A stretch of DNA of 20,000 nt. It comes from an uncultured virus (IMG/VR IMGVR_UViG_3300027798_002855). Its lineage: Duplodnaviria > Heunggongvirae > Uroviricota > Caudoviricetes. The stretch lies in IMG/VR virus record IMGVR_UViG_3300027798_002855; one strand, 5' to 3'. The position numbers and the translations under genes were made by a program. Below are positions 5,301 through 20,000 of this stretch, one piece after another (the first letter of the stretch is position 1; every line of letters begins with the position of its first letter). Under the pieces are notes generated by a model. It was not told where the DNA came from. It ran no database searches and was given only the letters and a program-made list of their open reading frames with translations.

Positions 5301-5892
5301 AGCTCCAGTAGAGTTGTTTGAAATAGAATATCGTTCTGATACTATTAAATTTTATTTTGTTGCGGATAGCGAAACTGGAGATCGTGCAAGAATATACGCC
5401 CTGAGTTTAGAAACAGGCGAATCTTATGACGGCATATCGTATTATTGGAATGGTACCCTTGTTAGGGAGCCAGTTTTAACAAGAAACGAATGGGGAGTTT
5501 TGGGCATAGGATTTTCTAATGCATTAAACTTTGATCTATATCTTGGCGGTATTAATCTAAACGGACCACTTGTATTTAACAACATAGCATACTATCAGGC
5601 TAATAATCTACAACAAGTTCAGAGTACCCTTACCAGACCATGGCAGCAAGTAATAACAGATGGTGCAACCAACTTCCAATGGGAGTACTGGCTTAATTCT
5701 TCAACATGGCAAGGCGTTCTTGTTATTGGATCCTCAGAACTTTATGGCGTAAACCCAAGCGATGTTTATAAAACATATATTGGAACTAATAAGATTATTT
5801 TTGATGATGAAGAGGGCTTGACCGTAGATGCAGATAAAATAAAGGTCTATACCGATACAGTTTGGACAATTAGGGTCGGTACACCAGTATAA
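2314..5892 (+). CDS. Large putative virion protein with LamG/concanavalin A-like and carbohydrate-binding-like beta-sandwich domains
   Basis: 1192 aa, rich in Ser/Thr/Asn/aromatics; N-terminal YAEKVFSEHPTVLWALDD and later YTVEFWARI...NNATVLVNGEEV...IDCVAIYSY resemble Laminin_G_3 signatures; good RBS. Confidence 0.65.
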   Translation: MSNPSNLYAEKVFSEHPTVLWALDDTADYISLITEAQRSFTSWTVTNATRSVANAPSTEPFTDSVVNKLDFVIPANTSFQVTCVSSDLINFSNLNSDYATFSVGGYFFDSTAVLDSVEIGYEYTDTTTAQNVRNLNTFDTNLNNAWGFVSGTFETPNENTTMRAVIKATFSGGASTSTTSFYLNGISLGQWSENFNTQSLGISAASITSANIAIATTEGVEAEAYGLGSEHGYYLVNDSALVAKNSSIPMVFGASGVTVLTPSATSEPSLIVPGKGFLNEAGRHKEYTVEFWARINSSTTTPKRIFGPIASSDGLYVESGFLTLVIGNQFGSHFVGEWYRPMLIHVRIIRNNATVLVNGEEVISLSISTDTMILPDILNNSDEEQDWLGFYAYEDVTPIEIDCVAIYSYQVPLPVAKRRWVYGQGVLSPEGINSAYGGTSAFIDYPFADYTANYTYPDFANWNQGSFDNLITSDTYISTPNYQLPNIFIDEEVLQDLYDDNQNIQAGSNKFITFRPTTSWNSVHAYYNFPNFNVLNEEVKAVYGVFSHDDVTSINQTLFKIYNKTNGNYFQVVQDDNQLIYSLTHNGASTSLYTYNTISVDQIFAVGINIPDLVSRFGGNVASFFGNRNGLELYVAGDNTAANTFEGNLYSFGFCTALNADEADGYFSNGFAAVTSGQDLIDFTASYTLLPTEAYDTYFLDIGVAGYWEDYLPLSYFAQFVENDRGETYYDLDFLQFNIGYPKPSELLEQASTSAFTYQQLKDDYEYPVQRTYSQLDNYLFTGWENYQQMIGRTEKYYEYDTEDASIRSFVTFQYVELGANAPRGDFTTRTAREGSIIDIDNFTNWPSTKFEVVDNTLIYPSKSIDFNQLAVVYHLDFNIRGILRKPIRLRRLELASQSFNNNSFNPVGTRFGVDIFPYKRSGIYYDYKAKNPFSIYKGSTPYLYMTRTSGIQVRGDYDPLVNRGLAIPINPNTADDYRISAVQMWLRYDERQFPEAPVELFEIEYRSDTIKFYFVADSETGDRARIYALSLETGESYDGISYYWNGTLVREPVLTRNEWGVLGIGFSNALNFDLYLGGINLNGPLVFNNIAYYQANNLQQVQSTLTRPWQQVITDGATNFQWEYWLNSSTWQGVLVIGSSELYGVNPSDVYKTYIGTNKIIFDDEEGLTVDADKIKVYTDTVWTIRVGTPV

Positions 5893-5910: not shown

Positions 5911-6294
5911 ATGAATAGCGAAAAAATCCCAAAAGTTGGTAATGTAAGGCGCAAAGTCATAGAAAAAAACTATGATTGGGGTCTTTATGTGTATAAAAAA
6001 TCTAATGGCAAGTGGTTTACAGATGGCCAGGGTAGCGTATTAAACGTTCCAGCCATGCGTGGAGACATATCAAAGATATCAGAACTTAAGAAGGCGGCCA
6101 TGTATTATGGCGATGAGGGTGACGGAGAATGCATATTTGTCCCTGGACTTAACAGGGTATCAGAAGAGCAGTATTCAGAAATGAAAGATAGAATGGCGCA
6201 AGGACTTATTCCAAATGTTAATGACCTTGGTGCTGTTTATGATGCACAGCAAACTTTAAAGAAACACGGAAGAGACGCATACGACAATGAATGA
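5911..6294 (+). CDS. Hypothetical protein directly upstream of and overlapping the portal gene (127 aa; ORF track start 5905)
   Basis: Open frame with an 8-nt overlap into the portal start; start moved to 5911 because ATG 5905 lies only 1 nt after the -10 element. Confidence 0.8.
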   Translation: MNSEKIPKVGNVRRKVIEKNYDWGLYVYKKSNGKWFTDGQGSVLNVPAMRGDISKISELKKAAMYYGDEGDGECIFVPGLNRVSEEQYSEMKDRMAQGLIPNVNDLGAVYDAQQTLKKHGRDAYDNE

Positions 6295-7888
6295 GAATTT
6301 TGATTACATATCAGCCAGTTTAAATACTCAAATTAAAGATCCAACTCCTTTTGCAAATATGGATCCTTTTACTAAATCTTGGGATGAACTTAAAGGCTTG
6401 AATGGTATTGACAATAACTTTAGACGCAGAACAAGTAGAAGCATTACAAAGGTTGCATCAGAAAGTCCAGCATATCTTGACTCTGCTAGTGCGACACCCT
6501 CTGGCGATGACTCAAAATCAAAACAAATAAATCCTGGCACGGTATACAGAAACGGCTATGGATTATTTGATGTAATTACCCCGCCATACAACATGTATGA
6601 GTTGGCAAACTTCTATGATACAAACTTTGCTAATCATGCTGCTATCGATGCAAAGGTAGAAAATGTTGTAGGTCTTGGATACCGATTTGATATTACAGAT
6701 CGCACAATGCTCAGTTTTGAAATGAGCGATGATGATGGTAGAGTAGAAAGAGCAAGAAACAGAATTGAACGAGCAAAGATTATGCTTCGTGATTGGCTAG
6801 AAGATCTTAATGACGATGATTCTTTTACAACTACAATGGAAAAGGTTTATACGGACTTACAGTCTACTGGAAATGGATTTCTTGAAGTTGGTCGTAAAGT
6901 AAATGGAGAGATTGGCTATCTTGGTCACATTCCTGCTACGACTATCCGTGTTCGTCGTTTAAAAGATGGTTTCGTACAGATTATTGGAAGTAAGATGGTT
7001 TACTTTAGAAACTTTGGTGCTAGAAATGCCAACCCGATTACATCTGACGGAAGACCAAACGAGATTATTCATCTAAAACAATATTCTCCACTAAATACAT
7101 TCTATGGTATTCCTGACATCCTTTCAGCAATGCCTTCGCTAATTGGAGACCAGTTGGCATCTCAATACAACATTGATTACTTTGAAAATAAGGCTGTTCC
7201 ACGATATGTTATTACAGTAAAGGGCGCTAAGTTATCTGCTGATGCAGAAGACAAGATGTTTAGATTTCTTCAAACAGGACTTAAGTCTCAGTCTCACAGA
7301 ACTCTATACATTCCTCTTCCTGGAGATACAGACAACAACAAGGTTGAGTTTAAAATGGAGCCAATTGAAAACGGTATTCAAGAAGGTTCATTTAAAGAAT
7401 ATCGTAAACAAAATCGTGATGACATTTTGATTGCTCATCAGGTTCCAATTTCTAAACTTGGTGGGTCTGATTCTTCTGGTATTGCTGCTGCTATTTCTCA
7501 AGACCGCACTTTTAAAGAGCAGGTCTCTAGACCAGCACAAAGATATCTAGAGAAGATGGTAAATAAGATTGTTAAAGAAAAGACTGATATTTTAGAGTTA
7601 AAATTCAACGAGTTAACTCTTACAGACGAAATAGCACAGTCTCAAATTCTTGAGCGGTATGTAAAAACTCAAGTAATGACTCCAAACGAGGCTCGTGAGA
7701 AGTTAGATCTTCCACAGCGTTCAGATGGGGATGTTCCATTTGTTATGAGTCCAAGACAGGCTACTGACGCTAGAGCAGATTTGGCAGGGAATCGACAAAG
7801 AGATACAGAAAGAACAAATAATAACTCTGACTCCCCATCCACAATCGCTGGCCGTAATCCACAGGGTGAGGGCCGTTCATCCACATAA
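6287..7888 (+). CDS. Phage portal protein (HK97/PBSX-like family)
   Basis: 533 aa; DLQSTGNGFLEV, LGHIPATTIRV, NEIIHLKQYSPLNTFYGIP, YFENKAVP, VMTPNEAREKLDLP are typical portal motifs; sits before protease and capsid genes. Confidence 0.93.
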   Translation: MNENFDYISASLNTQIKDPTPFANMDPFTKSWDELKGLNGIDNNFRRRTSRSITKVASESPAYLDSASATPSGDDSKSKQINPGTVYRNGYGLFDVITPPYNMYELANFYDTNFANHAAIDAKVENVVGLGYRFDITDRTMLSFEMSDDDGRVERARNRIERAKIMLRDWLEDLNDDDSFTTTMEKVYTDLQSTGNGFLEVGRKVNGEIGYLGHIPATTIRVRRLKDGFVQIIGSKMVYFRNFGARNANPITSDGRPNEIIHLKQYSPLNTFYGIPDILSAMPSLIGDQLASQYNIDYFENKAVPRYVITVKGAKLSADAEDKMFRFLQTGLKSQSHRTLYIPLPGDTDNNKVEFKMEPIENGIQEGSFKEYRKQNRDDILIAHQVPISKLGGSDSSGIAAAISQDRTFKEQVSRPAQRYLEKMVNKIVKEKTDILELKFNELTLTDEIAQSQILERYVKTQVMTPNEAREKLDLPQRSDGDVPFVMSPRQATDARADLAGNRQRDTERTNNNSDSPSTIAGRNPQGEGRSST

Positions 7889-7920
7889 TATCCACATAGT
7901 GATATAAACTAGTGATATAA
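7877..7920 (+). repeat. Two pairs of short direct repeats: ATCCACATA (7879-7887, 7890-7898) and TAGTGATATAA (7897-7907, 7910-7920)
   Basis: Read directly from the portal/protease junction. Confidence 0.85.
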
Positions 7921-7921
7921 T
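7913..7921 (+). promoter_or_regulatory. Extended -10 promoter (TGATATAAT) for the protease-scaffold-capsid unit
   Basis: TGn-TATAAT with 9 nt between it and ATG 7931; no clear SD. Confidence 0.7.
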
Positions 7922-7930
7922 TGGGAAACA

Positions 7931-9226
7931 ATGATTATGAACAAAGCACAATGGACTACAAGTGGCGATAGCGTTCGTTTTTCAATGCCTATTGGCAAAA
8001 TTGATCAAGAACGTCGTATCGTTTCAGGTTTTGCAACATTAGATAATATTGACAAGCAAAACGATATCGTAACTACTGAAGCAAGTATAACTGCTTTTAA
8101 GAAGTTCCGTGGCAATCTTCGTGAAATGCATCAACCAAGTGCTGTTGGCAAAGTTGTTTCTTTTAAAGAGGATCGTTATTTTGATCCAGAAACAAAAAAG
8201 TTTTACAGCGGAGTTTATGTTTCGGCATACGTCTCCAAAGGCGCACAAGACACTTGGGAAAAGGTTCTTGATGGAACACTGACTGGTTTTTCAATTGGTG
8301 GAAACATTACTAAATCTGATGATGAGTTTAACAAAGAACTTGATAAGCCTGTGCGTATAATTAAAGAGTATCAACTGCATGAGTTATCTCTTGTAGACAA
8401 CCCTGCTAATGAATTTGCTAATGTCCTCTCAATTGAAAAGGGAGAACTTAGCGGGTACTTAGCAAAAACAGAAATTGAAAATGTTTTCTGGGATCAAGAT
8501 AGTGATATTGTTTTAATATCTTCTTCTGAAACAGAAATAAGCCCAAACTCTGGAAAGCCAATGAAGAACATTGGTTTTGTAGAGAAATCAGATTCTGATA
8601 ATGCAGAAAAAATAAAGTTCTTAGTTGATAGTGCAAAAGGCATTAGAACAATTAAGATGACAAAGGAGGATAATCCTATGACAGAAGAAACACAAGTTGT
8701 TGCAGAGGCACCAGCCGATGCAGCACCAGTCGTTGAAAATGTTGAGGTTGCTCCAGAGGCTACAGCAGAAGTCGTAGTAGAACCAGAAGTAGTTGCTCCA
8801 GAAGCACCTGCTGATGCTGAAATTGCTAAGACCGATGAAGTTGCTCCTTCAACAGAAGAAGTTGTAGAGAAGAAAGAAGATGTTGTTACAGATATCGCCA
8901 AAGATGTAACAGATATTAAAGATTCTCTAACTAATGCCTTGAGCAGTCTAGCAGAAACCGTTAAGTCACTTCAGGTTAACGTTGATGCAATAACAAAGTC
9001 CCTTGAAACAGTTACAGGCGAAGTAAAGTCTGTAGCAGGTGAGGTCAAAGAAGTAAAGGGTTCTTTTGATGAGTTTGGAAAGCGAGTAGATCTTGTAGAA
9101 AAAGATACTGCTTTCCGCAAGTCTGGCGATCTAGGCGAGATCGTACAGGAGTTCCCAGAAATGAGAACTCAAAAATCCCTATGGGGCGGACGTTTCCTCA
9201 CAAATGCCGACCTATTCAACAACTAA
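7931..9226 (+). CDS. HK97-family prohead (maturation) protease fused to a C-terminal scaffold region
   Basis: RIVSGFATLDNIDKQNDIV, LREMHQ (His), GFSIGG (Ser), ELSLVDNPAN match the HK97-type protease; the C-terminal part is an acidic E/A/V/P-rich stretch followed by a coiled-coil-like region. Confidence 0.9.
   Translation: MIMNKAQWTTSGDSVRFSMPIGKIDQERRIVSGFATLDNIDKQNDIVTTEASITAFKKFRGNLREMHQPSAVGKVVSFKEDRYFDPETKKFYSGVYVSAYVSKGAQDTWEKVLDGTLTGFSIGGNITKSDDEFNKELDKPVRIIKEYQLHELSLVDNPANEFANVLSIEKGELSGYLAKTEIENVFWDQDSDIVLISSSETEISPNSGKPMKNIGFVEKSDSDNAEKIKFLVDSAKGIRTIKMTKEDNPMTEETQVVAEAPADAAPVVENVEVAPEATAEVVVEPEVVAPEAPADAEIAKTDEVAPSTEEVVEKKEDVVTDIAKDVTDIKDSLTNALSSLAETVKSLQVNVDAITKSLETVTGEVKSVAGEVKEVKGSFDEFGKRVDLVEKDTAFRKSGDLGEIVQEFPEMRTQKSLWGGRFLTNADLFNN
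8678..9226 (+). CDS. Nested in-frame scaffolding protein (182 aa, MTEETQVVAEAP...)
   Basis: Strong SD AAGGAGG at 8663-8669, 8 nt before in-frame ATG 8678, at the boundary where composition turns scaffold-like. Confidence 0.75.
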   Translation: MTEETQVVAEAPADAAPVVENVEVAPEATAEVVVEPEVVAPEAPADAEIAKTDEVAPSTEEVVEKKEDVVTDIAKDVTDIKDSLTNALSSLAETVKSLQVNVDAITKSLETVTGEVKSVAGEVKEVKGSFDEFGKRVDLVEKDTAFRKSGDLGEIVQEFPEMRTQKSLWGGRFLTNADLFNN

Positions 9227-9249
9227 AAAACCAAATGGAGGTGAACAAT

Positions 9250-10371
9250 ATGTCGGAACAAGAAAAACTAGTAAAAGCCGCTGAAGCGGGCGCATTCGTG
9301 TCAGGTGGAATTGGCAGTGCTACTGCTACAGATCCAAATGGCAACGTGTCCCCTGCTGCATCTTTAGGTGCAGTTTCAGGCGGAACATTCGGTGTTACAA
9401 CTGGACAAAACGCAGTAAATCCAACAGGTACATCTGGTGGTATTCTAGCACCTGAACAAGCAAGACGCTTTATCGACTACGTGTGGGATGCAACAGTTCT
9501 CGCCAAAGATGGTCGTAGAGTTACAATGCGAGCAAACACTATGGAGATTGAAAAAGTCAACGTAGGAGAGCGTGTTATTCGTGCTGCTGCACAAGCAGAT
9601 GACGCATATACAAACGCAGGCGCAACATTTACAAAGGTAGAACTAACAACCAAAAAGATTCGTCTTGATTGGGAAGTTTCTACTGAGTCTCTAGAGGACA
9701 ATATTGAAGGAGCCGCTCTTGAAGATCGTCTCGTTCGCTTGATGACCAATGCATTCGCAAATGACATTGAAGATCTAGCGATTAACGGTGATGGTGCAAC
9801 AGGATCATTCCTTTCAATCATGCCTGGCTTTATTAAGCAAACTCGTGGTACAGTAGGTAACGATGCTCACGAAGCAGCGATTACTGTAACAAGTGATAAC
9901 TGGACTACTTCGGTAATGCAGTCTATCATTCTTGCACTACCACGCAAGTATCGCTCACTTAAGAGCAATCTTAAGTTCTATGCTGGTACAGATGCATTCC
10001 AAGGAATCATTAAGAATAATGGTACCCTTGCTGATGCAATTGCACAAGCATTCTCAACTAAAGACGGTCTGCTTCGCACAGAAGCAAACAGTCAAGCATA
10101 TCTTGATGGTGGCTCTCAGACATTCGGTGGTGCTCGCACTACCCGTGTTCTCGGAGTTGACGTCATGGAGGTCCCTTACTATCCAGATGGATATGTCGAT
10201 TTGACATTCCCTGAGAATCGTGTATGGGGTTTCCAGCGTGATATCACGGTCAACCGTGAATACAAGCCAAAGAAAGATACAATCGAGTACACAGTATTCG
10301 TACGCTTTGGTCTCGCTTGGGAAGAGTTGGATGCAGTTGCTTATGGCGACGCAGACAGCGCAGATTCCTAA
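9250..10371 (+). CDS. Major capsid protein (HK97 fold), 373 aa; start corrected from 9181 to 9250
   Basis: SD GGAGGTGA at 9237-9244 before ATG 9250; GGILAPEQARRFID, LTTKKIRLDWEVSTESLEDNIEG, FANDIEDLAINGDG motifs; followed by a terminator. Confidence 0.93.
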   Translation: MSEQEKLVKAAEAGAFVSGGIGSATATDPNGNVSPAASLGAVSGGTFGVTTGQNAVNPTGTSGGILAPEQARRFIDYVWDATVLAKDGRRVTMRANTMEIEKVNVGERVIRAAAQADDAYTNAGATFTKVELTTKKIRLDWEVSTESLEDNIEGAALEDRLVRLMTNAFANDIEDLAINGDGATGSFLSIMPGFIKQTRGTVGNDAHEAAITVTSDNWTTSVMQSIILALPRKYRSLKSNLKFYAGTDAFQGIIKNNGTLADAIAQAFSTKDGLLRTEANSQAYLDGGSQTFGGARTTRVLGVDVMEVPYYPDGYVDLTFPENRVWGFQRDITVNREYKPKKDTIEYTVFVRFGLAWEELDAVAYGDADSADS

Positions 10372-10429: not shown

Positions 10430-10438
10430 TGGTATAAT
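10430..10438 (+). promoter_or_regulatory. Extended -10 promoter (TGGTATAAT); RBS GGAGG at 10445-10449
   Basis: Directly downstream of the terminator, upstream of ATG 10455. Confidence 0.75.
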
Positions 10439-10784: not shown

Positions 10785-11755
10785 TGGAAATATTACGTAT
10801 TCCGCCATACCCGATTGATATTCAATACACTGTGCCAACAGCAAGCACATCGTATTTTTTAGTCATTGAAAGTAACGATAGAAACGAAGAATTGCTAAGT
10901 GTTGCTGTAACATCAAGTGCATCTTCAGTTGTTACTCGTACCCTTTCAGACACCTTCTCAAAATATGATGAGCATTATGCTGTAACAATATATGAAAAGA
11001 ACGGAACTGCTCGTGGAGATGTTGTGGTTGAGGATAATCTTGAGATTGTTAGACCATACGTAGATCCAAACTCTCTTGGAACAACTGCAACAGAGATAGC
11101 AGAGTATACAGAACATGAAAGTTTAGCAAGAAATATAATTGATTCATATGTTCCAGATGGATTTTACTTTACTACAGAATGGCTGCAAATAGTTGGTCAG
11201 GGAACTGACTACATGCCTATTTGGACCAGAGGCTATAAAATTTTAAAAGTATATCGTAACTCAGAGTTGGTTTACGATGTTGATGACGCAGACGGTCCAG
11301 CATTAGATTCGTATGATTACAGCATTACAAAAGATAAAACTGGAATTATTAAAGATCCTGTTGCGGGAGTAGATAATTGGAACAGATATGAGCGTAAGCC
11401 TGCAAGAATGCCAATCGCTGCATCAGACTCCATTTCTTTTTTTGATACAGGAGATAGCGGAAACATTCAGACGTTTAGTGGTGGAGTTAGTTTCCCAGAG
11501 GGCGAAGATTATATGTTTTATATTGAGTCAGGGTATAAAGTAGTTCCTAATGATATTAAAGATGCAACAACCATGCTTATAGATGACATTAAATGTGGAA
11601 GACTTGATTACTATAAGAGATATGTAAAAAATTATAAAACTGATCAATTTAATGTTCAATACAACAGTTTAATGATGGAAGGAACTGGAAACCTTCTTGT
11701 TGATAAAATTTTAAACAAGTATGTAAACCTTATAACTCGTCCTGGAGTATTATGA
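10784..11755 (+). CDS. Head-tail adaptor (SPP1 gp15/HK97 gp6-like) with extra beta-rich sequence
   Basis: 323 aa; ARNIIDSYV and SGYKVVPNDIKDATTMLI...ILNKYV resemble adaptor motifs; TAATG coupling to the upstream gene; synteny. Confidence 0.65.
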   Translation: MEILRIPPYPIDIQYTVPTASTSYFLVIESNDRNEELLSVAVTSSASSVVTRTLSDTFSKYDEHYAVTIYEKNGTARGDVVVEDNLEIVRPYVDPNSLGTTATEIAEYTEHESLARNIIDSYVPDGFYFTTEWLQIVGQGTDYMPIWTRGYKILKVYRNSELVYDVDDADGPALDSYDYSITKDKTGIIKDPVAGVDNWNRYERKPARMPIAASDSISFFDTGDSGNIQTFSGGVSFPEGEDYMFYIESGYKVVPNDIKDATTMLIDDIKCGRLDYYKRYVKNYKTDQFNVQYNSLMMEGTGNLLVDKILNKYVNLITRPGVL

Positions 11756-13481: not shown

Positions 13482-13490
13482 TGTTATAAT
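13482..13490 (+). promoter_or_regulatory. Extended -10 promoter (TGTTATAAT) for the major tail gene
   Basis: TGn-TATAAT in the intergenic gap. Confidence 0.75.
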
Positions 13491-13544
13491 TGGTATTGAG
13501 GAAACACGCCCACCTATTTAACAAAGAAAAAAGAGGTGAACAAT

Positions 13545-14198
13545 ATGCCAGCATATAGCCGTGGTACGTCTAACAACATTATCGTTGGAGCAGCCGCGTT
13601 TTTTCTATGTGATACGACAGTAACAGCCGCACAGGCTTTTACTTCAGCCGCATCTCCAGCATTTGTAAGCACAGAGTCATACAAATCCACTCTGTCTGCA
13701 GATCCTGATTGGAACAACGTTGGTTACACAATGAACGGTCTTGAAATGCAATTCCAACCTGACTTCGGTGAGGTTGCAGTTGATCAAATTCTTGATGTTG
13801 CAAAACTTTACAAACAAGGTATGCAGGTAAATGTTGCTACAGCATTCGCTGAAGCAACTCTTGAGAATCTACTTTATGCCCTTGCATTTAATGAGTCAGA
13901 ACTCACTGGTACAAAAACAACTTCTTCAGGTCGTCGTCTGAATCTTTCAGCAGGCGAACTCGGAGAGTGCCCAGTTGAGCGAGCAATTGCAGCCGTCGGT
14001 CCAGGTACTGGCGATTGCGATGACTCAGGTAACGTAGAACGTGTCTATCTCGGATATCGTGCGCTTTCAATTGAAAACGTAACGGTTTCTGCGAAGCGTG
14101 ATGAACCTTCAATGTTTGAAGTTTCATTCCGTCTACTTCCAGAAGACTCATCTGGTGCATACGGTAAGATCGTAGATCGCACTCATACCGCATCATAA
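13545..14198 (+). CDS. Major tail (tube) protein, 217 aa; start corrected from GTG 13536 to ATG 13545
   Basis: GTG 13536 is part of the SD GAGGTGA; NIIVGAA, VGYTMNGLEMQFQPDFGEVAVDQ, FAEATLENL, FEVSFRLLP resemble siphoviral tube proteins; own promoter and terminator. Confidence 0.85.
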   Translation: MPAYSRGTSNNIIVGAAAFFLCDTTVTAAQAFTSAASPAFVSTESYKSTLSADPDWNNVGYTMNGLEMQFQPDFGEVAVDQILDVAKLYKQGMQVNVATAFAEATLENLLYALAFNESELTGTKTTSSGRRLNLSAGELGECPVERAIAAVGPGTGDCDDSGNVERVYLGYRALSIENVTVSAKRDEPSMFEVSFRLLPEDSSGAYGKIVDRTHTAS

Positions 14199-14220
14199 TC
14201 TTAAAATAAGATTAATAACA

Positions 14221-14253
14221 GCCCACTCCCTAATGGGGGTGGGTTTGTTGTTT
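14221..14253 (+). terminator. Intrinsic terminator after the major tail gene
   Basis: Stem GCCCACTCCC / GGGGGTGGGT (two G-U pairs), TAAT loop, then TTGTTGTTT. Confidence 0.85.
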
Positions 14254-14254
14254 A

Positions 14255-14263
14255 TGGTAAAAT
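14255..14263 (+). promoter_or_regulatory. Extended -10 promoter (TGGTAAAAT), probably giving a leaderless mRNA at ATG 14271
   Basis: 7 nt (AGATAAA) between the -10 hexamer and the ATG; no SD. Confidence 0.7.
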
Positions 14264-14270
14264 AGATAAA

Positions 14271-14981
14271 ATGGCTACAGAGATATATAAAATAGAAAAA
14301 ATACAATTAGTTGATGGAACAGAAATAGAACTGATTCCATTAAAAATAAAATATCTAAGAGAATTTATGTCGGTATTTAATGCAATCCGTGTAACTAAAA
14401 ATGATCAAGAAGCAATCCTTGTGTTATCAGAATGTGCAAGAATATGCATGAAACAGTACTATCCAGAAATATCAAAAACAATAGGAATGTTAGAAGATAA
14501 CCTAGATCTTCCAACGGTATATAAAGTATTAAATGTAGCGGCTGGTATTAAGATAGATAAAAAATCAGAAGAACCTGTAAAGGATCAAGCAACAGAAAGT
14601 GGTTCTACTTGGGATTCTTTAGACTTAGCCAAACTAGAATCTGAGGCATTTTTGCTCGGTATATGGAAAGATTATCAAGAACTAGAAGAGTCTTTATCAA
14701 TGCCAGAACTTATGGCTACCCTCTCCAGCAAGAGAGAACTAGACTATGAAGAAAAGAAATTTTTAGCAGCAATTCAGGGTGTTGATTTAGATTCTCAAAG
14801 CGGAAGTTCAAGAGGCCAAAAAGAATGGGAAGACATGAAGGCGAGGGTATTTAGTAAAGGCAAAACCTCAGATAGTAATGATATCCTAGCACTACAAGGT
14901 CCTGCAGCCCAGAAGGCAGGGTTTGGCATTGGAATGGGCATAGACTATGAAGATATGCGTGATCCATCAATAGTTAATTAA
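14271..14981 (+). CDS. Tail assembly chaperone, long form (G-like domain fused in frame to a T-like extension)
   Basis: 236 aa between major tail and tape measure genes; N-terminal ~95 aa are paralogous to the 109-aa downstream protein. Confidence 0.75.
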   Translation: MATEIYKIEKIQLVDGTEIELIPLKIKYLREFMSVFNAIRVTKNDQEAILVLSECARICMKQYYPEISKTIGMLEDNLDLPTVYKVLNVAAGIKIDKKSEEPVKDQATESGSTWDSLDLAKLESEAFLLGIWKDYQELEESLSMPELMATLSSKRELDYEEKKFLAAIQGVDLDSQSGSSRGQKEWEDMKARVFSKGKTSDSNDILALQGPAAQKAGFGIGMGIDYEDMRDPSIVN

Positions 14982-15009
14982 TAAAGTATTTTTAAAAATA
15001 GGCCTTTCA

Positions 15010-15018
15010 TGCTATAAT
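15010..15018 (+). promoter_or_regulatory. Extended -10 promoter (TGCTATAAT); strong RBS AGGAGG at 15034-15039
   Basis: Consensus TGn-TATAAT upstream of ATG 15044. Confidence 0.75.
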
Positions 15019-15043
15019 TACATTAGCCTATATAGGAGGAAAA

Positions 15044-15373
15044 ATGGCAACAACTACGTATGAGAGTCAAGAACTTGTACTTATGGATGGAACTACAATA
15101 GCAGTGAGACCTTTAAAAATCTCTTTGCTTCGTCCCTTCATGAGCAAGTTTGAAAAAGTGGCAGAGGTGGCAGAAGATAACGAGAAGTCTATGACTCTCC
15201 TTATTGAATGTGTAAAAATTGCTATGCAGCAATATAAGCCAGAACTGGCTGATGTTCAGAAACTAGAGGAAGTTTTAGACCTTCCAACAGTTTACAAAAT
15301 CATTGAGGCTGCTTCAGGAGTTAAACTTCAAGATGCAAACGCTCTGCTAAACACAGTGCTTGCAAATAACTAA
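15044..15373 (+). CDS. Tail assembly chaperone, short form (G-like)
   Basis: 109 aa directly upstream of the tape measure gene; DGT.I...PLKI..LR.FMS and LDLPTVYK shared with the 236-aa gene. Confidence 0.78.
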   Translation: MATTTYESQELVLMDGTTIAVRPLKISLLRPFMSKFEKVAEVAEDNEKSMTLLIECVKIAMQQYKPELADVQKLEEVLDLPTVYKIIEAASGVKLQDANALLNTVLANN

Positions 15374-15392
15374 AAAGTAAGAGGTGTTATAA

Positions 15393-18300
15393 GTGGCTGA
15401 TGTAAATGCTAATATTGGCATACATGTAGACACTTCTTCATCTTTAGCACAAATAAAGGCGCTACAGCGTCAACTAGCATCACTCTACACAAGTATCAAT
15501 AGAGGTAGCGCTGCTGCGGCAGTAGCCCAAAAGGGCCTTGCTACAAACTTAATGAACAGCATAAATGCTGGCGGTAAGTTTTATGCTCAGATGGGCTCAG
15601 TTCGCACAAGTACGGAATCCTTTACTCACGCACTAGAGAAAAATAAACTCACTATGCGTGAGTATTTCCGTTTTGCTGGCGGATCTACAAGAACATTTGG
15701 AAGACTATTTAAATCAGAATTTAACACGATTGGCAGGGTAGCCGAAGAGCGTGTCAAGAAGATGCAGACCCAGTATGTTAAGTTGGGTCGTGATGCATCT
15801 GGAGCAATGAAGGCAATGTCCATAACTCCTACATCTTTAAATATGAAAGATTATGGAACCAGGGTAGCAGTAGCAGCACAAAAACAAGCAATATTAAATC
15901 AACTACTTAGACAAGGCTCTACCAACATATTGAACTTTGGTAAGAATATGCAGTGGTCTGGTCGTCAGTTGATGGTTGGTTTTACAGTGCCTCTTGCATA
16001 CTTTGGTGCTCTTGCTGGTAAAACATTTATGGATCTTGAAAAACAAGCTCTTAGATTTAAGCGTGTTTATGGAGACATGTTTACAACTTCAGATCAAACA
16101 AATAAAGCACTTGAAGAGGTACAGGCCTTAGCTAAGGGATTTACTAAGTATGGAGTTGCTGTTGCTAAAACTATGGAAATGGCTGCAAGTGCTGCAGCTA
16201 TGGGTAGAACAGGCGCAGAACTTACAGCGCAGGTTGCACAAGCCACAAGACTTGCAGTTCTTGGCAATGTTGAACAAGAAGAGGCACTTAAGACAACAAT
16301 ATCTTTAACGGATGCTTTTGGTTTGGCTGCAGAAGATCTAGCAGGGAAAATTAACTTTTTAAACTCTGTTGAAAACCAAACTATAACAGCAATTGAAGAT
16401 TTGACTATTGCTATTCCAAAGGCTGGACCAGTTGTTAAACAACTTGGAGGTAGCGTAGAAGATCTTGCATTCTTCCTAACTGCTATGCGTGAAGGTGGCA
16501 TCAATGCATCCGAAGGTGCTAACGCACTTAAGTCTGGTTTGGCATCTTTGATTAATCCATCAGATAAAGCAGCAGCAATGCTTGGCGATTTGGGAATTAA
16601 CATAAAAGGAATCGTTGAAGGAAATGTTGGAAATCTAAAACAGACAGTAATTGATTTTGCAAATGCATTAGACACTCTTGCCCCACTTGACAGATCAAGG
16701 GCAATTGAGCAATTATTTGGTAAGTTCCAGTTTGCACGTTTATCTACTTTATTTGAAAATGTTACTAAAGAAGGCGGGCAGGCGGCAAGAGTGTTGGATC
16801 TTGCTGGAAAGTCCATAGAAGAGCTTGCAATCTTGTCAGAGCGAGAACTAGGTGCAATAGAGGACTCTGTAGCAACAGATTTCAAAGAAGCCATAGAGCA
16901 ATTTAAATTAACTATTGCTCCAATAGGAAAAGAGTTTTTAAAAGCAATAACTCCTGTTGTTAAGTTTTTTGGAGAACTGTTTGAAAAATTTGGCAATCTT
17001 AGCGATGGATCTAAAAAGTTTATAGTAATCCTAACAACCCTTATTGGGCTTGTAGGTCCTACCCTGCTTATGACCTTTGGTTTGGTTGCTAACGGTGCAG
17101 CAAACATTATTAAAATGTTCTTGTTAATGAGAACTGGATTTTTAAAATTAAGTGGCAATAGTCAGGTTCTTGCTCAACAAACACAATATTTGAATACCGA
17201 ACAAATGGAAGCGGCTGTAGTTGCTGCGTCTTTGAATCAAGCACACTCAAGGCTTACTCAACAATTTAATATTGAAACAACAGCATTAAATCAACTTAGA
17301 AATGCATATATCACAGCCACTGCAGCAGCAGCAAGGTTTGCAGCAGCAAATCCTGGAATGATGATTCGTGGAGCAGGAAAAGTACCAAAGAAGTTTAATT
17401 CTGGAACCATGAAAGTTCCAGGGTACAAAAAAGGAACCGACTCAGTACCAGCAATGCTTACACCAGGTGAGGCGGTAATTCCAGAACCCATAGCACAAGA
17501 TGATAGATTTAAACCACTTGTTGCTGCACTTGTGTCCGGAGAAATAGCAAAGTATGAAACCGGAACAACAAGCGTAGTCTTCGGTGGAAATAAGTATAAT
17601 GCTAAAACTGCAAAAAGCTCTAAAAGTTTAAGTTTATTCTTAAATGGTCTTGTCAAAAATCCAGACGGAACTCTTACATATAACGATCCAAAGGATCCGT
17701 CTCTTACTAAAACTTTTACAAAAGAAAGATTAACACAGGTTCTTGCAAAATATTCTCCAAGAGGAGACTTAACTCTTGATAAAATTAAAAGATCTTTAGA
17801 GCTTGGAACATCTTATCAAGGCAAAAGAGGAGCAGGAAAATCATCTGCAGATCCTTACCTTAAAGCACTTGTTCAAAAAGCAAAATATCCAAATGCTTTA
17901 GCAGAACAACAAAAGATTGAGTCCACATTAAAACAAAAAGGAATTACTGCAAGTCAGCAGCAATTAAGAAATCTATTTCAGACACAAGCAGCTCACATTG
18001 TTCCAGATGTTGATGCAAATGGTAAAAAAATATGGAGAGCAGCAAACATTGTTCCAGATGCAGGCTATATAAATAACTACATGAACACTGCTGGTAAAAA
18101 TATAGGTAAAGAGCTTCAAGCAATGTCTGATAACGATTTAAAAAAGCTTGGTATTAAAAGATCAGAACTAAACAACATAGTTCGCGGACGTCACCCAATG
18201 ACTGGAGCAGCAGCAGGAACCTTGGCAAACATTGCAAGGTATCAAATTTCTAAAAATCCTAATGCAAGAGGAATATATCAAGCACACGCAGTGACTGCTG

Positions 18301-20000
18301 GAATGGATTATAGAGCTTCAACAGGATTTTATCCCGCTTCTGGAGCAATAAAAACTCTTGCTCAAATTTTCCCTAAAGATCCAAGAATAATAAAAGAGCT
18401 TGGAAAAAAAGTTGCTGTTGGCATTGGAGAAAAAATTAAGGGTGCTTCTGGAAAAATTACACAAGTAACTGGTCAAACAGGAAAACCAAGACCTCCTGGA
18501 ATGCAGGTTTCTGGAGGAGCTTCAAGTGATAGACGTATTGTTCCTGCTTCAGCTGCTCCTACGGTTTTTCCAAGAGGATTTAGAGGCCCAAGGCCATTTG
18601 CTCTGGGAGCAGATAAAGGATTGGGCGAAGGCAAGGTAGTCAAAAAAGGCTCAGCTGGCGCATCTTCAAGTAAGATTACAGCAGAAACAAGAAGAACAGA
18701 AAAGTCTATCAAAGAAAATACAAAAGCAAGAAACGATAATACAAAATCTACTGTTGCTGAATCTAAGTCTAAAAGTCAAGGAACAGTAGTACAACAAAAA
18801 AATACTCAGGTTACAAGTCGATATACGGAAGCACAAAGACAGGCTGCACGTGATCGTGCTGCTCTTCAACCTAGAAATGAAGCGGGTAGATTCATAAAAG
18901 GATCTGCTGTAGCACCACCTGGTCCAATAGACCCAAAGGCTGCTCGCATGGAAAAAATGCAAAGAATGTCAGCCAGGACTGGACCTATTGCAATGGCTGC
19001 AGGAACTGCGGCTATGGTCGCAGCTATGAGCGGTGCTGATCAAAAAATAACCAATATGCTATTTGGAGTTTCCATGATTGCTGGATTACTTCCATTGTTT
19101 ACTAGTAAACTTGGAGGTTTATTTGCTGTTGTTGCCCTAGTTGGTCTTGGAATGTACAAATTAGCTTCAGATATAAATAAAGCACGAGAAGAAGGGGTTG
19201 CTTTCGCTAAATCATTGACAATGACAAATGAAAAACTAATAGAGTTATCAAAAATTACTGGACAAGTTAGCGCTACAGAATCGGCAAAAAGGGGAAGACA
19301 GGCTCAACTCTCTGGCGCATCTGGAGTTCAAAGAAAAACAGGACAGAACATTATTCAAAGTGATTTTGGCAAAGGTCTTCTTAAAGATATAGAGAGTCAA
19401 AAAAAGTCAGGAGCCTCTGATGCCGATGTTGCAAATAGTGTTGCATTAGGATTATCAACTGCAATCATGCAAGGGGTTGTGACAACCGAGCAAGCAAAAA
19501 GCATTTCTGCTGCCCTTGGTGAAAAGCTTGGTAACTACAGCATTCCAGCACAAGTAACTGGAAAAATAGTGAGCCTGGTTGGTCCAAATGGAGAACGTCT
19601 AGAAAGCCAGCCATTGCAAGTTGCTCTTGAAATTAAAAAAGATTCAATGGAGCAGCAGGCTAAGGTGTTTCAAAATGCCATGTCACAAAGAAAAAGTTCT
19701 ACTTTAAGCACTGGAATGGGTGTTGGTTCTATTATGGCTGGAGCTGTTGCAGTCACAGCAGCCTCAGGTGGGTTGTTGGCTCCAGCAGCATTAGCCGCTA
19801 GTATTGGACTGGCTACTGCGGCAGCAATTCAAGGATCCAAAGTAAGAGCAAATAATCTTAAACTTGATACTGCAGCAATTCAGCTTGGATTTGAATCTAT
19901 AGCACAAGGTCAAGGACTTGTAGACTCACTTAATAAGCAGTATGATAATAAAATTAAACAAGCAAAAACCGAAAAGGAAATTAGCACACTTGAAGCAGAG
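15393..20000 (+). CDS. Tail tape measure protein (TP901-like core), 3'-truncated, at least 1536 aa
   Basis: SD GAGGTG 15381-15386, GTG 15393 (MADVNANIGIHVDTSSSLAQIKALQRQL); frame reads open to the window end (...EISTLEAE); Ala/Gly-rich helical core (EGGINASEGANALKSGLASLINP), hydrophobic segments, GTDSVPAMLTPGEAVIP motif. Confidence 0.92.
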   Translation, partial: MADVNANIGIHVDTSSSLAQIKALQRQLASLYTSINRGSAAAAVAQKGLATNLMNSINAGGKFYAQMGSVRTSTESFTHALEKNKLTMREYFRFAGGSTRTFGRLFKSEFNTIGRVAEERVKKMQTQYVKLGRDASGAMKAMSITPTSLNMKDYGTRVAVAAQKQAILNQLLRQGSTNILNFGKNMQWSGRQLMVGFTVPLAYFGALAGKTFMDLEKQALRFKRVYGDMFTTSDQTNKALEEVQALAKGFTKYGVAVAKTMEMAASAAAMGRTGAELTAQVAQATRLAVLGNVEQEEALKTTISLTDAFGLAAEDLAGKINFLNSVENQTITAIEDLTIAIPKAGPVVKQLGGSVEDLAFFLTAMREGGINASEGANALKSGLASLINPSDKAAAMLGDLGINIKGIVEGNVGNLKQTVIDFANALDTLAPLDRSRAIEQLFGKFQFARLSTLFENVTKEGGQAARVLDLAGKSIEELAILSERELGAIEDSVATDFKEAIEQFKLTIAPIGKEFLKAITPVVKFFGELFEKFGNLSDGSKKFIVILTTLIGLVGPTLLMTFGLVANGAANIIKMFLLMRTGFLKLSGNSQVLAQQTQYLNTEQMEAAVVAASLNQAHSRLTQQFNIETTALNQLRNAYITATAAAARFAAANPGMMIRGAGKVPKKFNSGTMKVPGYKKGTDSVPAMLTPGEAVIPEPIAQDDRFKPLVAALVSGEIAKYETGTTSVVFGGNKYNAKTAKSSKSLSLFLNGLVKNPDGTLTYNDPKDPSLTKTFTKERLTQVLAKYSPRGDLTLDKIKRSLELGTSYQGKRGAGKSSADPYLKALVQKAKYPNALAEQQKIESTLKQKGITASQQQLRNLFQTQAAHIVPDVDANGKKIWRAANIVPDAGYINNYMNTAGKNIGKELQAMSDNDLKKLGIKRSELNNIVRGRHPMTGAAAGTLANIARYQISKNPNARGIYQAHAVTAGMDYRASTGFYPASGAIKTLAQIFPKDPRIIKELGKKVAVGIGEKIKGASGKITQVTGQTGKPRPPGMQVSGGASSDRRIVPASAAPTVFPRGFRGPRPFALGADKGLGEGKVVKKGSAGASSSKITAETRRTEKSIKENTKARNDNTKSTVAESKSKSQGTVVQQKNTQVTSRYTEAQRQAARDRAALQPRNEAGRFIKGSAVAPPGPIDPKAARMEKMQRMSARTGPIAMAAGTAAMVAAMSGADQKITNMLFGVSMIAGLLPLFTSKLGGLFAVVALVGLGMYKLASDINKAREEGVAFAKSLTMTNEKLIELSKITGQVSATESAKRGRQAQLSGASGVQRKTGQNIIQSDFGKGLLKDIESQKKSGASDADVANSVALGLSTAIMQGVVTTEQAKSISAALGEKLGNYSIPAQVTGKIVSLVGPNGERLESQPLQVALEIKKDSMEQQAKVFQNAMSQRKSSTLSTGMGVGSIMAGAVAVTAASGGLLAPAALAASIGLATAAAIQGSKVRANNLKLDTAAIQLGFESIAQGQGLVDSLNKQYDNKIKQAKTEKEISTLEAE
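17987..18060 (+). repeat. 23-nt imperfect direct repeat with a 51-nt period inside the tape measure gene
   Basis: AGCAGCTCACATTGTTCCAGATG (17987-18009) vs AGCAGCAAACATTGTTCCAGATG (18038-18060), 21/23 identical; encodes AAHIVPD / AANIVPD. Confidence 0.85.

Follow-up and report, generated by a model that had tools for sequence, protein, structure and literature searches.

Two adjacent paralogous genes between the tail tube and tape measure genes of an uncultured freshwater Caudoviricetes virus very probably encode its tail assembly chaperones, the long gene making the GT form from one frame and the short gene making the G form, so that no frameshift is needed. The window, by which we mean the whole analyzed stretch of 20,000 nucleotides, comes from the IMG/VR record IMGVR_UViG_3300027798_002855. 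The clade around it is a clean and independent example of a two-gene chaperone, although the principle itself is not new. The features of the locus are as follows.

13536-14198, + strand: tube-like major tail protein gene, 220 aa (phrog_2175, E 2e-33).
14220-14245, + strand: intrinsic-terminator-like hairpin downstream of the tube gene (11 pairs including 7 G-C, T-rich tail).
14255-14263, + strand: putative extended -10 element TGGTAAAAT for the long gene, 7 nt upstream of its ATG; no Shine-Dalgarno precedes the gene.
14271-14981, + strand: long chaperone gene, 236 aa, a hard-wired G-T fusion (phrog_10504 plus phrog_10474).
~14271-14555, ~14556-14594 and ~14595-14978, + strand: G part, linker and T part of the long gene.
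14556-14564, + strand: GAT AAA AAA (Asp-Lys-Lys) at the position of the relatives' slippery site.
14991-15018, + strand: promoter-like site ahead of the short gene (TTTAAA and a TG-extended TATAAT, spaced by 16 nt).
15034-15039, + strand: Shine-Dalgarno AGGAGG of the short gene.
15044-15373, + strand: short chaperone gene, 109 aa, which encodes G and is not followed by a T frame (phrog_10504, E 4e-23).
15393 to 20000, + strand: tape measure protein gene with a GTG start, running past the window end (phrog_10030, E 2e-98).

The Streptomyces phage homologues of the gene at 13536-14198 are annotated as major tail protein, and the gene starting at 15393 matches 13 further tape measure families besides phrog_10030. 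The long and the short genes sit between these two, and no further + strand ORF of at least 40 aa was found in that interval. All sequence statements of the preliminary description were confirmed. This description, made from the letters of the window, had aligned the two products by hand, counted about 42 identities and called the genes paralogs. Performing BLASTP, we obtained 42 identities over 96 residues (44%, E 1e-25). Both proteins match phrog_10504 at residues 1-100, with E values of 4e-22 (long) and 4e-23 (short), and the long protein alone matches phrog_10474 (residues 131-198, E 3e-15). The first gene had been said to run on in frame past the G region, and it is indeed a single 236-aa ORF at 14271-14981. 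The second had been said to leave no room for a T frame, and we see the same: its stop codon (15371-15373) is followed by 19 nt and then by the tape measure GTG, and the TAA at 15390-15392 closes the tape measure frame on its upstream side. The nearest record (G001; 36 kb, 33% complete) likewise holds just the two copies.

We checked the origin of the extra part of the long protein by protein comparison. Over 117 aa, the T part (residues ~109-236) shares 63% identity (E 4e-47) with the T of the uncultured L089, a closer relative than the Streptomyces phages, in which T lies in the -1 frame. By tblastn, the long protein matched 127 Streptomyces phages in two pieces, one corresponding to G and the other to a -1-frame T, and in 101 of the 127 at least 80% of the query was covered in this two-piece manner. 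The T frame of these phages is offset by -1 and overlaps G by 55-64 nt. Thus, the correspondence of residues ~110-236 to the frameshifted T frame of relatives that keep a slippery site, which the preliminary description had named as a test, holds for L089 and for the Streptomyces phages. This homology, together with the family matches, supports the proposed assignment of the long gene as GT and the short gene as G. The tail of the short protein (VKLQDANALL...) is similar to the G-frame tails of the Streptomyces phage G proteins. A blastn search of phage records gave just a 92-nt patch in 18 Streptomyces phages, and a protein search was therefore needed to find these relatives.

The fused frame is a property of a large clade, comprising 450 viral contigs and thousands of metagenome proteins. 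G and T lie in one open frame in the window and in 80/80 related viral contigs examined, in place of the frameshift by which a lambda-type pair is recognized. The short gene was seen in 78 of these 80 loci, and the sequence of the remaining two stops too soon to include it. Among 150 relatives listed from a library clustered at 50% identity, 14 span the G/T junction in one stretch; three of the 14 are full length, and the rest of the listing consists of G-only or T-only ORFs. At E<=0.001, the long protein matches 6648 database proteins of 129-413 aa. Among the database matches are 247-aa versions of it, and the relative L005 carries an in-frame GTG that lies ahead of the -10 box, within the terminator hairpin. 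In the window, no start codon precedes 14271, so we read the 247-aa versions as gene-caller choices. A few long-type database proteins (P0133, P0142 and P0155) end near the junction, as they would if the in-frame fusion were a sequencing or assembly error in an ordinary frameshift locus. We consider such an error next to impossible, because the 80 contigs with the fusion are independent, the database matches run into the thousands, a second G gene with its own signals follows the fusion in 78/80 loci, and the linker is a conserved protein sequence.

GAT AAA AAA at 14556-14564 aligns with the in-phase slippery sites of the relatives, which are C CCA AAA in L089 (2438-2444) and C CCA AAT in BillNye, and it is probably a relic of such a site. 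If it still worked, the long gene could yield both forms, with a G-like product arising by slippage at Asp-Lys-Lys, and the short gene would be a spare or re-purposed copy. The exact coincidence with the relatives' heptamer and the presence of a six-A run in 33 of the 52 distinct junctions speak for this reading. However, the longest A-run is 3 in one junction, 4 in five, 5 in twelve and 7 in one, and the junction heptamer of the long gene is out of X XXY YYZ phase. A working slippery site was thus rejected as a conserved feature of the long gene. CAG GCA, CAA CAA, GAA AAT or AGA AAA replace the run in several lineages, and synonymous AAA/AAG changes are common at the junction. The short gene, moreover, is retained in 78/80 loci with invariant strong start signals and a dN/dS of ~0.10, a sign of purifying selection. 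Slippage as the source of both forms is therefore extremely improbable, and we take the long gene to provide GT and the short gene to provide G.

The long gene is also under purifying selection, with dN/dS of ~0.14 in the G part and ~0.09 in the T part, its most conserved segment. In 479 of 576 locus pairs, its G part had a higher dN than the short gene. This faster evolution would fit a long protein that no longer acts as a chaperone and serves, for instance, in the virion or in regulation, with tails built by G alone. Such a loss of role is highly unlikely in our view, since the T part is the best conserved of all and has kept 63% identity with its counterpart in a relative that frameshifts. 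A weak predicted contact of the T part with the tube protein points the same way, and so does the need of lambda and TP901-1 for both forms, as reported (PMC5009743, PMC4493119).

Performing complex prediction, we obtained a score of 0.44 for the T part with the tube protein, against 0.00 for the best of three controls, which gives weak support to a predicted contact. The mark applied to such scores is reached by 116 of 157 solved complexes and by 2 of 215 mismatched pairs, and scores that reach it but do not exceed 0.60 include 18 of the 157 solved complexes and both mismatches. In the runs with the T part and the tube protein, at least 25% of the contacts agree, and the partner pLDDT is at least 38.

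We also checked the chaperone identity by family and fold searches. Neither protein matched a curated Pfam chaperone family above the cut-off; one of 34 relatives matched PF23857 Phage_TAC_19 (E 0.0088) and one matched PF17388 (E 0.12), both below the cut-offs. A sequence profile search of the PDB gave nothing useful, and Foldseek against the PDB gave nothing at E<=0.001. The predicted models are of moderate quality (pLDDT 64.7 and 74.6). In the BFVD fold search, proteins named tail or tape-measure chaperones made up 16 of the 50 listed matches for the short model and 15 of 50 for the long model. The best named match was a 'Tail assembly chaperone' (E 6e-7), and protein GT of N15 was among those listed (E 0.013). 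In a wide VIA search, YqbN (3klu), which we take to be a chaperone, ranked first (Z 4.9, rmsd 3.7, 85 aligned), and the HK97 tail assembly chaperone (2ob9) ranked 19 (Z 3.7, rmsd 3.6, 79 aligned); both matches are weak and tied with unrelated helical chains, and both alignments cover the G part.

RNA libraries contain sequences of this kind, as 24 runs hold 21-35% of the sampled words. We compared the window with four runs from four studies, all in the form of contigs, which carry no information on starts, strand or level and may include DNA. The tube gene was covered in 4/4 runs. The short gene was covered over at least 190 nt in 2/4 runs, and by a 36-nt piece in a third. The long gene was covered in 1/4 runs, and such contigs cannot rank the genes. 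No listed piece spans the boundary between the tube and long genes or that between the long and short genes, and given the nature of these contigs we draw nothing from the uncovered parts.

The two genes differ in their start signals. The preliminary description had placed the long gene behind a terminator, with a non-consensus -10 box and a leaderless geometry, and we re-found all three, namely the hairpin at 14220-14245, TGGTAAAAT and its short distance from the ATG. A G+C-rich hairpin with a variable stem sequence occupies the same place in the 48 distinct upstream sequences listed. A TGNTA[A/G/T]AAT box lies 6-9 nt ahead of the long-gene ATG in 43 of 44 distinct upstream sequences, and a Shine-Dalgarno-like 4-mer is present in 0/44. 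For the short gene, the consensus -10 and the AGGAGG of the earlier account lie at 15010-15018 and 15034-15039. The former is TGCTATAAT, the TG-extended -10 of the promoter-like site. It is invariant in all 41 distinct short-gene upstream sequences, 23-29 nt ahead of the ATG, and also precedes the single G gene of L089 and that of Coruscant. AGGAGG is found in 40 of the 41, and the remaining one has AGGAG. No terminator-like site was found between 14981 and 15044. Across the whole window, TGNTANAAT is not enriched: it occurs 10 times where 6.2 matches are expected, and a count of 10 or more arises in 20 of 200 shuffles. The order GT then G and both sets of start signals are common to the clade (80 contigs; 44 and 41 upstream sequences).

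These signals suggest how the two products could be made in different amounts. The long gene would give the GT form straight from its single open frame, and the short gene would give the G form. By analogy with lambda, the G part that both proteins share would attach to the tape measure protein, with the T part recruiting the tube protein. How much of each form is made would probably be decided at initiation. The long gene, behind a terminator and a non-consensus extended -10, would produce an mRNA starting at or next to the ATG and having no ribosome binding site, and the short gene would be driven by an invariant consensus extended -10 and a strong AGGAGG. In the absence of a terminator between the genes, transcripts from the long-gene promoter should also carry the short gene, so the short-gene mRNA should be at least equal to the long-gene mRNA. 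This would explain the order GT then G. The start signals would thus fit an excess of the short form and may set the short:long ratio; the promoter activity, the leaderless translation and the binding partners of the pair are what we infer here from sequence. Leaderless mRNAs can be well translated in actinobacteria, and hence a leaderless start need not mean scarce GT.

A stronger version of this reading is that a whole freshwater siphovirus clade swapped the near-universal G/GT frameshift for a fixed circuit of transcription and translation, in which a leaderless GT gene with a weak promoter precedes a G gene whose promoter and ribosome binding site are both strong. We hold it tentatively, with doubt slightly outweighing belief. 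In such a nested circuit, the G mRNA would always be at least as abundant as the GT mRNA. If this were true, leaderless initiation would be a built-in attenuator, and the AT-rich, recoded G part of the long gene would have been selected for an open leaderless 5′ end and as a block to recombination. The comparison with sister lineages that keep C CCA AAA would then be a natural side-by-side test of why the frameshift is conserved.

The origin of the pair can be read in two ways. The long gene may have been captured as the G-T gene of another phage (a xenolog), already fused or fused later, instead of arising by duplication in place. The G parts are just 44% identical in protein and 53.5% in DNA; the longest word common to both is 10 nt, the same codon is used at 18 of the 42 identical residues, and the GC3 of the long-gene G part is below that of the short gene in 54/54 distinct loci. 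Also, the long and short clades emerge from a polytomy along with classic G genes. However, a tree constraining long and short genes to one clade was not rejected and had the higher likelihood (p-AU 0.75). Both clades fall inside an aquatic group, apart from most Streptomyces phage G genes, and the low GC3 could reflect selection on the leaderless 5′ end or against recombination between the copies. On balance, capture appears unlikely, though it is the most serious of the alternatives. The preliminary description had proposed to date the duplication by synteny and phylogeny across relatives, and the layout is clade-wide.

Few recoding events in phages are as well conserved as the G/GT frameshift, and the reason for keeping it is an old question. 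Here, a large and diverse natural clade has dropped the frameshift and yet retains both products, and its conserved signals suggest a way of restoring the stoichiometry in the absence of recoding. As close relatives keep the slippery site, a single family allows the change to be both dated and compared. There is also a practical side: software for calling genes or predicting frameshifts will annotate such loci wrongly if it presupposes a G/T overlap. In the literature outside subscription journals, we found no description of this lake-phage clade, and for the same layout in siphoviruses we found only the T4-like case and a remark on Microbacterium EA phages. Work on lambda already points to the frameshift being replaceable, and the T4-like two-gene case does likewise.

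In a lambda-type pair, a programmed -1 (rarely +1) frameshift takes place at a slippery site near the 3′ end of G, the short form is in large molar excess, and neither form is found in the virion. The -1 frameshift of lambda gpG/gpGT is reported to be conserved in long-tailed phages (Levin et al. 1993; Xu, Hendrix and Duda 2004, 2013, 2014; reviewed in PMC5009743). The review gives a gpG:gpGT ratio of ~30:1, with G binding the tape measure protein and T binding the tube protein (PMC5009743). A TP901-1 mutant with fused GT only is reported to make non-infectious particles (PMC4493119), and a phage with a hard-wired GT thus needs a separate G. Like lambda, the window has these genes between the tube and tape measure genes, has a short form and a long form with a common N-terminal part and an added T part, and has homologs of both parts in phages of the frameshift layout. 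Unlike lambda, it shows no frame overlap and no programmed frameshift; its GT has a separate gene, which is followed by a second, diverged G copy, and each gene has its own start signals.

T4-like phages have been reported to use gp26/gp51 as two-gene tail chaperones (Vladimirov, Gautam and Davidson, Virology 2022;566:9, as cited in PMC10885494). There, as in the window, short and long forms come from separate paralogous genes without recoding. In T4 itself, BLASTP aligns the 208-aa product of gene 26 with the 249-aa product of gene 51 over 161 aa at 20% identity (E 2e-6), which makes the two genes paralogs. T4 is a myovirus, and its genes 26 (minus strand) and 51 (plus strand) are divergent hub genes next to 25 and 27. 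In contrast, the genes of the window are in tandem on the + strand, at the canonical siphovirus position, and have close relatives that are still frameshifting. We found no specific sequence relation to gp26/gp51: PF12322 T4_baseplate was matched by one of 34 relatives (E 0.14), and in the BFVD fold search a T4-like 'baseplate hub assembly protein' appeared weakly, at rank 48 (E 0.5). Among actinobacterial siphoviruses, the Microbacterium EA phages likewise depart from the frameshift. The passage on them describes two ORFs apparently expressed separately, with no mention in it of a fused GT or a second G.

A further comparison is with Stanwilliamsviridae phages of Streptomyces (Coruscant, Braelyn, BillNye, Wofford and Birchlyn) and with L089. 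Their gene order is the same, with homologs of tube, G, T and tape measure, and, as in the window, the tube gene is followed by a terminator and G is preceded by a TGNTATAAT box and a Shine-Dalgarno. In L089, the order is terminator, TGCTATAAT, Shine-Dalgarno, one G, C CCA AAA, a -1-frame T and the tape measure gene. The Streptomyces phage records examined annotate G and T as two CDS without a join, and a joined GT feature is thus absent from them. Unlike the window, with its fused GT and second G, these phages have one G gene and a T in the -1 frame.

Two small genes lie between a tube-like gene and the tape measure gene in the phage structural module of the window.

256-2286, ribonucleotide reductase
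6287-7888, portal
7931-9226, head maturation protease
9181-10371, major-head-like protein
13536-14198, tube-like protein (phrog_2175)
14220-14245, terminator-like hairpin after the tube gene
14271-14981, long gene, 236 aa (phrog_10504 at residues 1-100, phrog_10474 at residues 131-198)
15044-15373, short gene, 109 aa (phrog_10504 at residues 1-100)
from 15393, tape measure gene with a GTG start (phrog_10030, E 2e-98)

The preliminary description had called the two small genes paralogs, and BLASTP bears this out (42/96 identities, E 1e-25); phrog_10474 matches the long protein only. As also described, 19 nt separate the short-gene stop from the tape measure GTG, and a TAA at 15390-15392 closes the tape measure frame. 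An ORF scan found no further plus-strand ORF of at least 40 aa between these two genes. All the other sequence statements were confirmed as well. Elsewhere in the module, the protease and major-head-like ORFs, which are in different frames, share 46 nt, and a PHROG search at E<=1e-5 gave no match for a 1192-aa ORF (2314-5892) that lies between ribonucleotide reductase and the portal region.

Searching phage records by tblastn, we find that the long protein matches 127 records, all Streptomyces phages, with at least 80% query coverage in 101 of them; each of the listed rows is in two pieces. Five annotated records were examined (Coruscant, Braelyn, BillNye, Wofford and Birchlyn). Their gene order is major tail protein, a G gene of 114-120 aa, an ORF of 89-90 aa and the tape measure. 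The 89-90 aa ORF lies in the -1 frame and is open 55-64 nt upstream into G, where its translation already resembles the window linker (BillNye ...SGSTWEELDLAKLE; window ...SGSTWDSLDLAKLE). The in-phase heptamer of BillNye is C CCA AAT. L089, an uncultured and closer relative, has the complete classic layout, in the order terminator, TGCTATAAT, ribosome binding site, single G gene (2124-2456), T and tape measure gene. Its canonical heptamer, C CCA AAA, is in phase at 2438-2444, three codons ahead of the G stop, and its T, in the -1 frame, is 63% identical to the window T over 117 aa (E 4e-47). Because the T half matches the -1-frame ORFs of both the Streptomyces phages and L089, the long gene is the frameshift product (GT in lambda naming) written as a single frame, with the T part running from residue ~109 on. 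The short protein ends in a G-type tail (VKLQDANALL...), resembling Streptomyces phage G-frame tails such as VKLNDPELM... and VKLNDPNLL.... The proposed assignment, GT for the long gene and G for the short one, is thus upheld against a relative that keeps its slippery site.

L089 also carries tandem tube-protein paralogs (L089:283-939 and L089:1489-2031), 58% and 64% identical to the window tube protein, where the window clade has a single copy. In the Streptomyces phage records L001 (2788-2845), L002, L085 (1797-1851), L087 and L088, G and T are separate CDS with no join. GAC CCG GAA, which is not a canonical heptamer, stands where the T frame opens in 4/5 of these records, and the slip site there seems to be without annotation.

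Where frameshifting relatives slip, the long gene carries GAT AAA AAA, whose A-run does not fit the X XXY YYZ phase. Synonymous changes vary the run, several lineages have other codons in its place, and no conserved recoding signal was seen at the long-gene junctions of related loci. On these grounds we rejected the junction as a conserved slippery site.

The layout is shared by many relatives. A viral contig scan gave 450, and in the best 80 G and T always lie in one frame (80/80, 230-241 aa). A short G gene follows the fusion at 78 of these 80 loci and, when complete, has 102-111 aa; the remaining two are cut off before that point. Across related loci, 17-31 nt separate the short gene from the tape measure start, and a search with a fused protein of 48% identity added six more loci, which keep the same order. 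Database proteins matching the long protein at E<=0.001 numbered 6648 (129-413 aa), and a library clustered at 50% identity held 424 relatives at the same threshold. Among the best 150 of the 424, 14 extend unbroken across the G/T junction, including 3 full-length matches; the remainder are G-only or T-only ORFs, as frameshift loci predict. Since such ORFs form the majority there, the fused state is derived and limited to one clade. At two relatives' loci (L070 and L071, between 3714 and 3887) the spacer between the genes is 172 nt against the usual 26-62 nt, and TGCTATAAT still precedes the short gene. Three proteins of the long-gene type (P0133, P0142 and P0155) break off or shift frame just past the G part; either sequencing errors or a renewed split of the long gene in some lineages could account for this.

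In a tree of the G part, copies from the long gene group together with support 92 and those from the short gene with support 98, and each group arises from a polytomy shared with classic G genes. A tree constraining the two together is not rejected (p-AU 0.75). The pair may have arisen by duplication in place or by capture, the tree being compatible with either. From 576 usable pairs out of 900 sampled, dN/dS is ~0.14 for the G part of the long gene, ~0.09 for T and ~0.10 for the short gene, rough values with dS near saturation; dN is higher in the long gene's G part than in the short gene in 479 of the 576. A high AT content marks the G part of the long gene: its GC3 is 0.17, versus 0.32 in the short gene, and is the lower of the two in 54/54 distinct loci. 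The two G copies share 53.5% nucleotide identity, a longest common word of 10 nt, and the same codon at only 18 of 42 identical residues, so that they would offer no substrate for recombination deleting T.

The two genes have different start signals. The extended -10 box of the long gene, TGGTAAAAT (14255-14263), ends 7 nt upstream of the ATG, a leaderless geometry. TGNTA[A/G/T]AAT lies 6-9 nt before the long-gene ATG in 43/44 distinct upstream sequences, and none of the 44 has a Shine-Dalgarno-like word. Before the short gene, TGCTATAAT (15010-15018 in the window) is present in 41/41 distinct sequences, 23-29 nt upstream of the ATG, and AGGAGG in 40/41. In most loci TGCTATAAT begins 7-8 nt past the long-gene stop; in 4 it overlaps the stop. 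Because TGCTATAAT and a ribosome binding site also stand before the only G gene in L089 and in Coruscant, the short gene retains the ancestral signals, with the long gene lying downstream of the old terminator and upstream of the old promoter. Between the two genes no terminator-like site was found, so transcripts started at the long gene would read on through the short gene. The strong conservation of these signals makes it plausible that they give a low GT:G ratio.

Seven of the eight plus-strand matches to TGNTANAAT lie at most 45 nt upstream of an ORF start (2288-2296, 7913-7921, 10430-10438, 11701-11709, 13482-13490, 14255-14263 and 15010-15018), and for this reason the late module may hold many internal promoters. 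Across the whole window the motif is not enriched (10 found versus 6.2 expected). The head maturation protease gene also has leaderless geometry (7913-7933), with TGATATAAT ending 9 nt before the ATG.

No curated family match reached its cut-off. The predicted models are of moderate confidence (pLDDT 64.7 and 74.6). Among predicted viral structures the top named match is a tail assembly chaperone (E 6e-7), and chaperone names account for 16 of the 50 matches listed for the short model and 15 of 50 for the long one, including N15 protein GT (E 0.013). Among solved structures, YqbN (3klu) ranks first (Z 4.9) and the HK97 tail assembly chaperone (2ob9) nineteenth (Z 3.7), both weak and tied with unrelated helical chains. 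A complex prediction for the T part and the tube protein scored 0.44 (best of 3 controls 0.00), with runs sharing at least 25% of contacts and partner pLDDT of at least 38. This mark is reached by 116/157 solved complexes and 2/215 mismatches; scores of 0.60 or under comprise only 18 of the 157 solved complexes and both mismatches. The prediction faintly suggests that the T part contacts the tube protein. As the family, fold and complex results are weak, the putative chaperone identity draws chiefly on where the genes lie and on their homologs, which owe their chaperone annotation to synteny.

Lambda makes gpG and gpGT in a ratio of ~30:1, with G binding the tape measure and T the tube protein, and the frameshift is described as widely conserved in long-tailed phages 'except T4' (PMC5009743). 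A TP901-1 mutant with fused GT only is reported to give non-infectious particles (PMC4493119), which fits a need for the separate G gene here. The preliminary description held that gene duplication, in the order GT then G, had replaced frameshifting, with promoter and translation-initiation strength setting the ratio. Its structural and evolutionary part is supported and the finding is real; the ratio-setting step is plausible, judging from the conserved signals. A literature search found no printed description of the lake-phage clade. Some Microbacterium phages have two ORFs said to be expressed separately (PMC7302621). T4-like phages, like the window clade, are reported to use a short gene and a longer, fused one in place of frameshifting (Vladimirov, Gautam and Davidson 2022, as cited in PMC10885494); BLASTP finds T4 gp26 and gp51 paralogous (E 2e-6), and their genes are divergently read. 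The window clade thus adds an independent and well-anchored case of a solution previously reported in other phages, and its main value is the natural comparison with frameshifting sister lineages.
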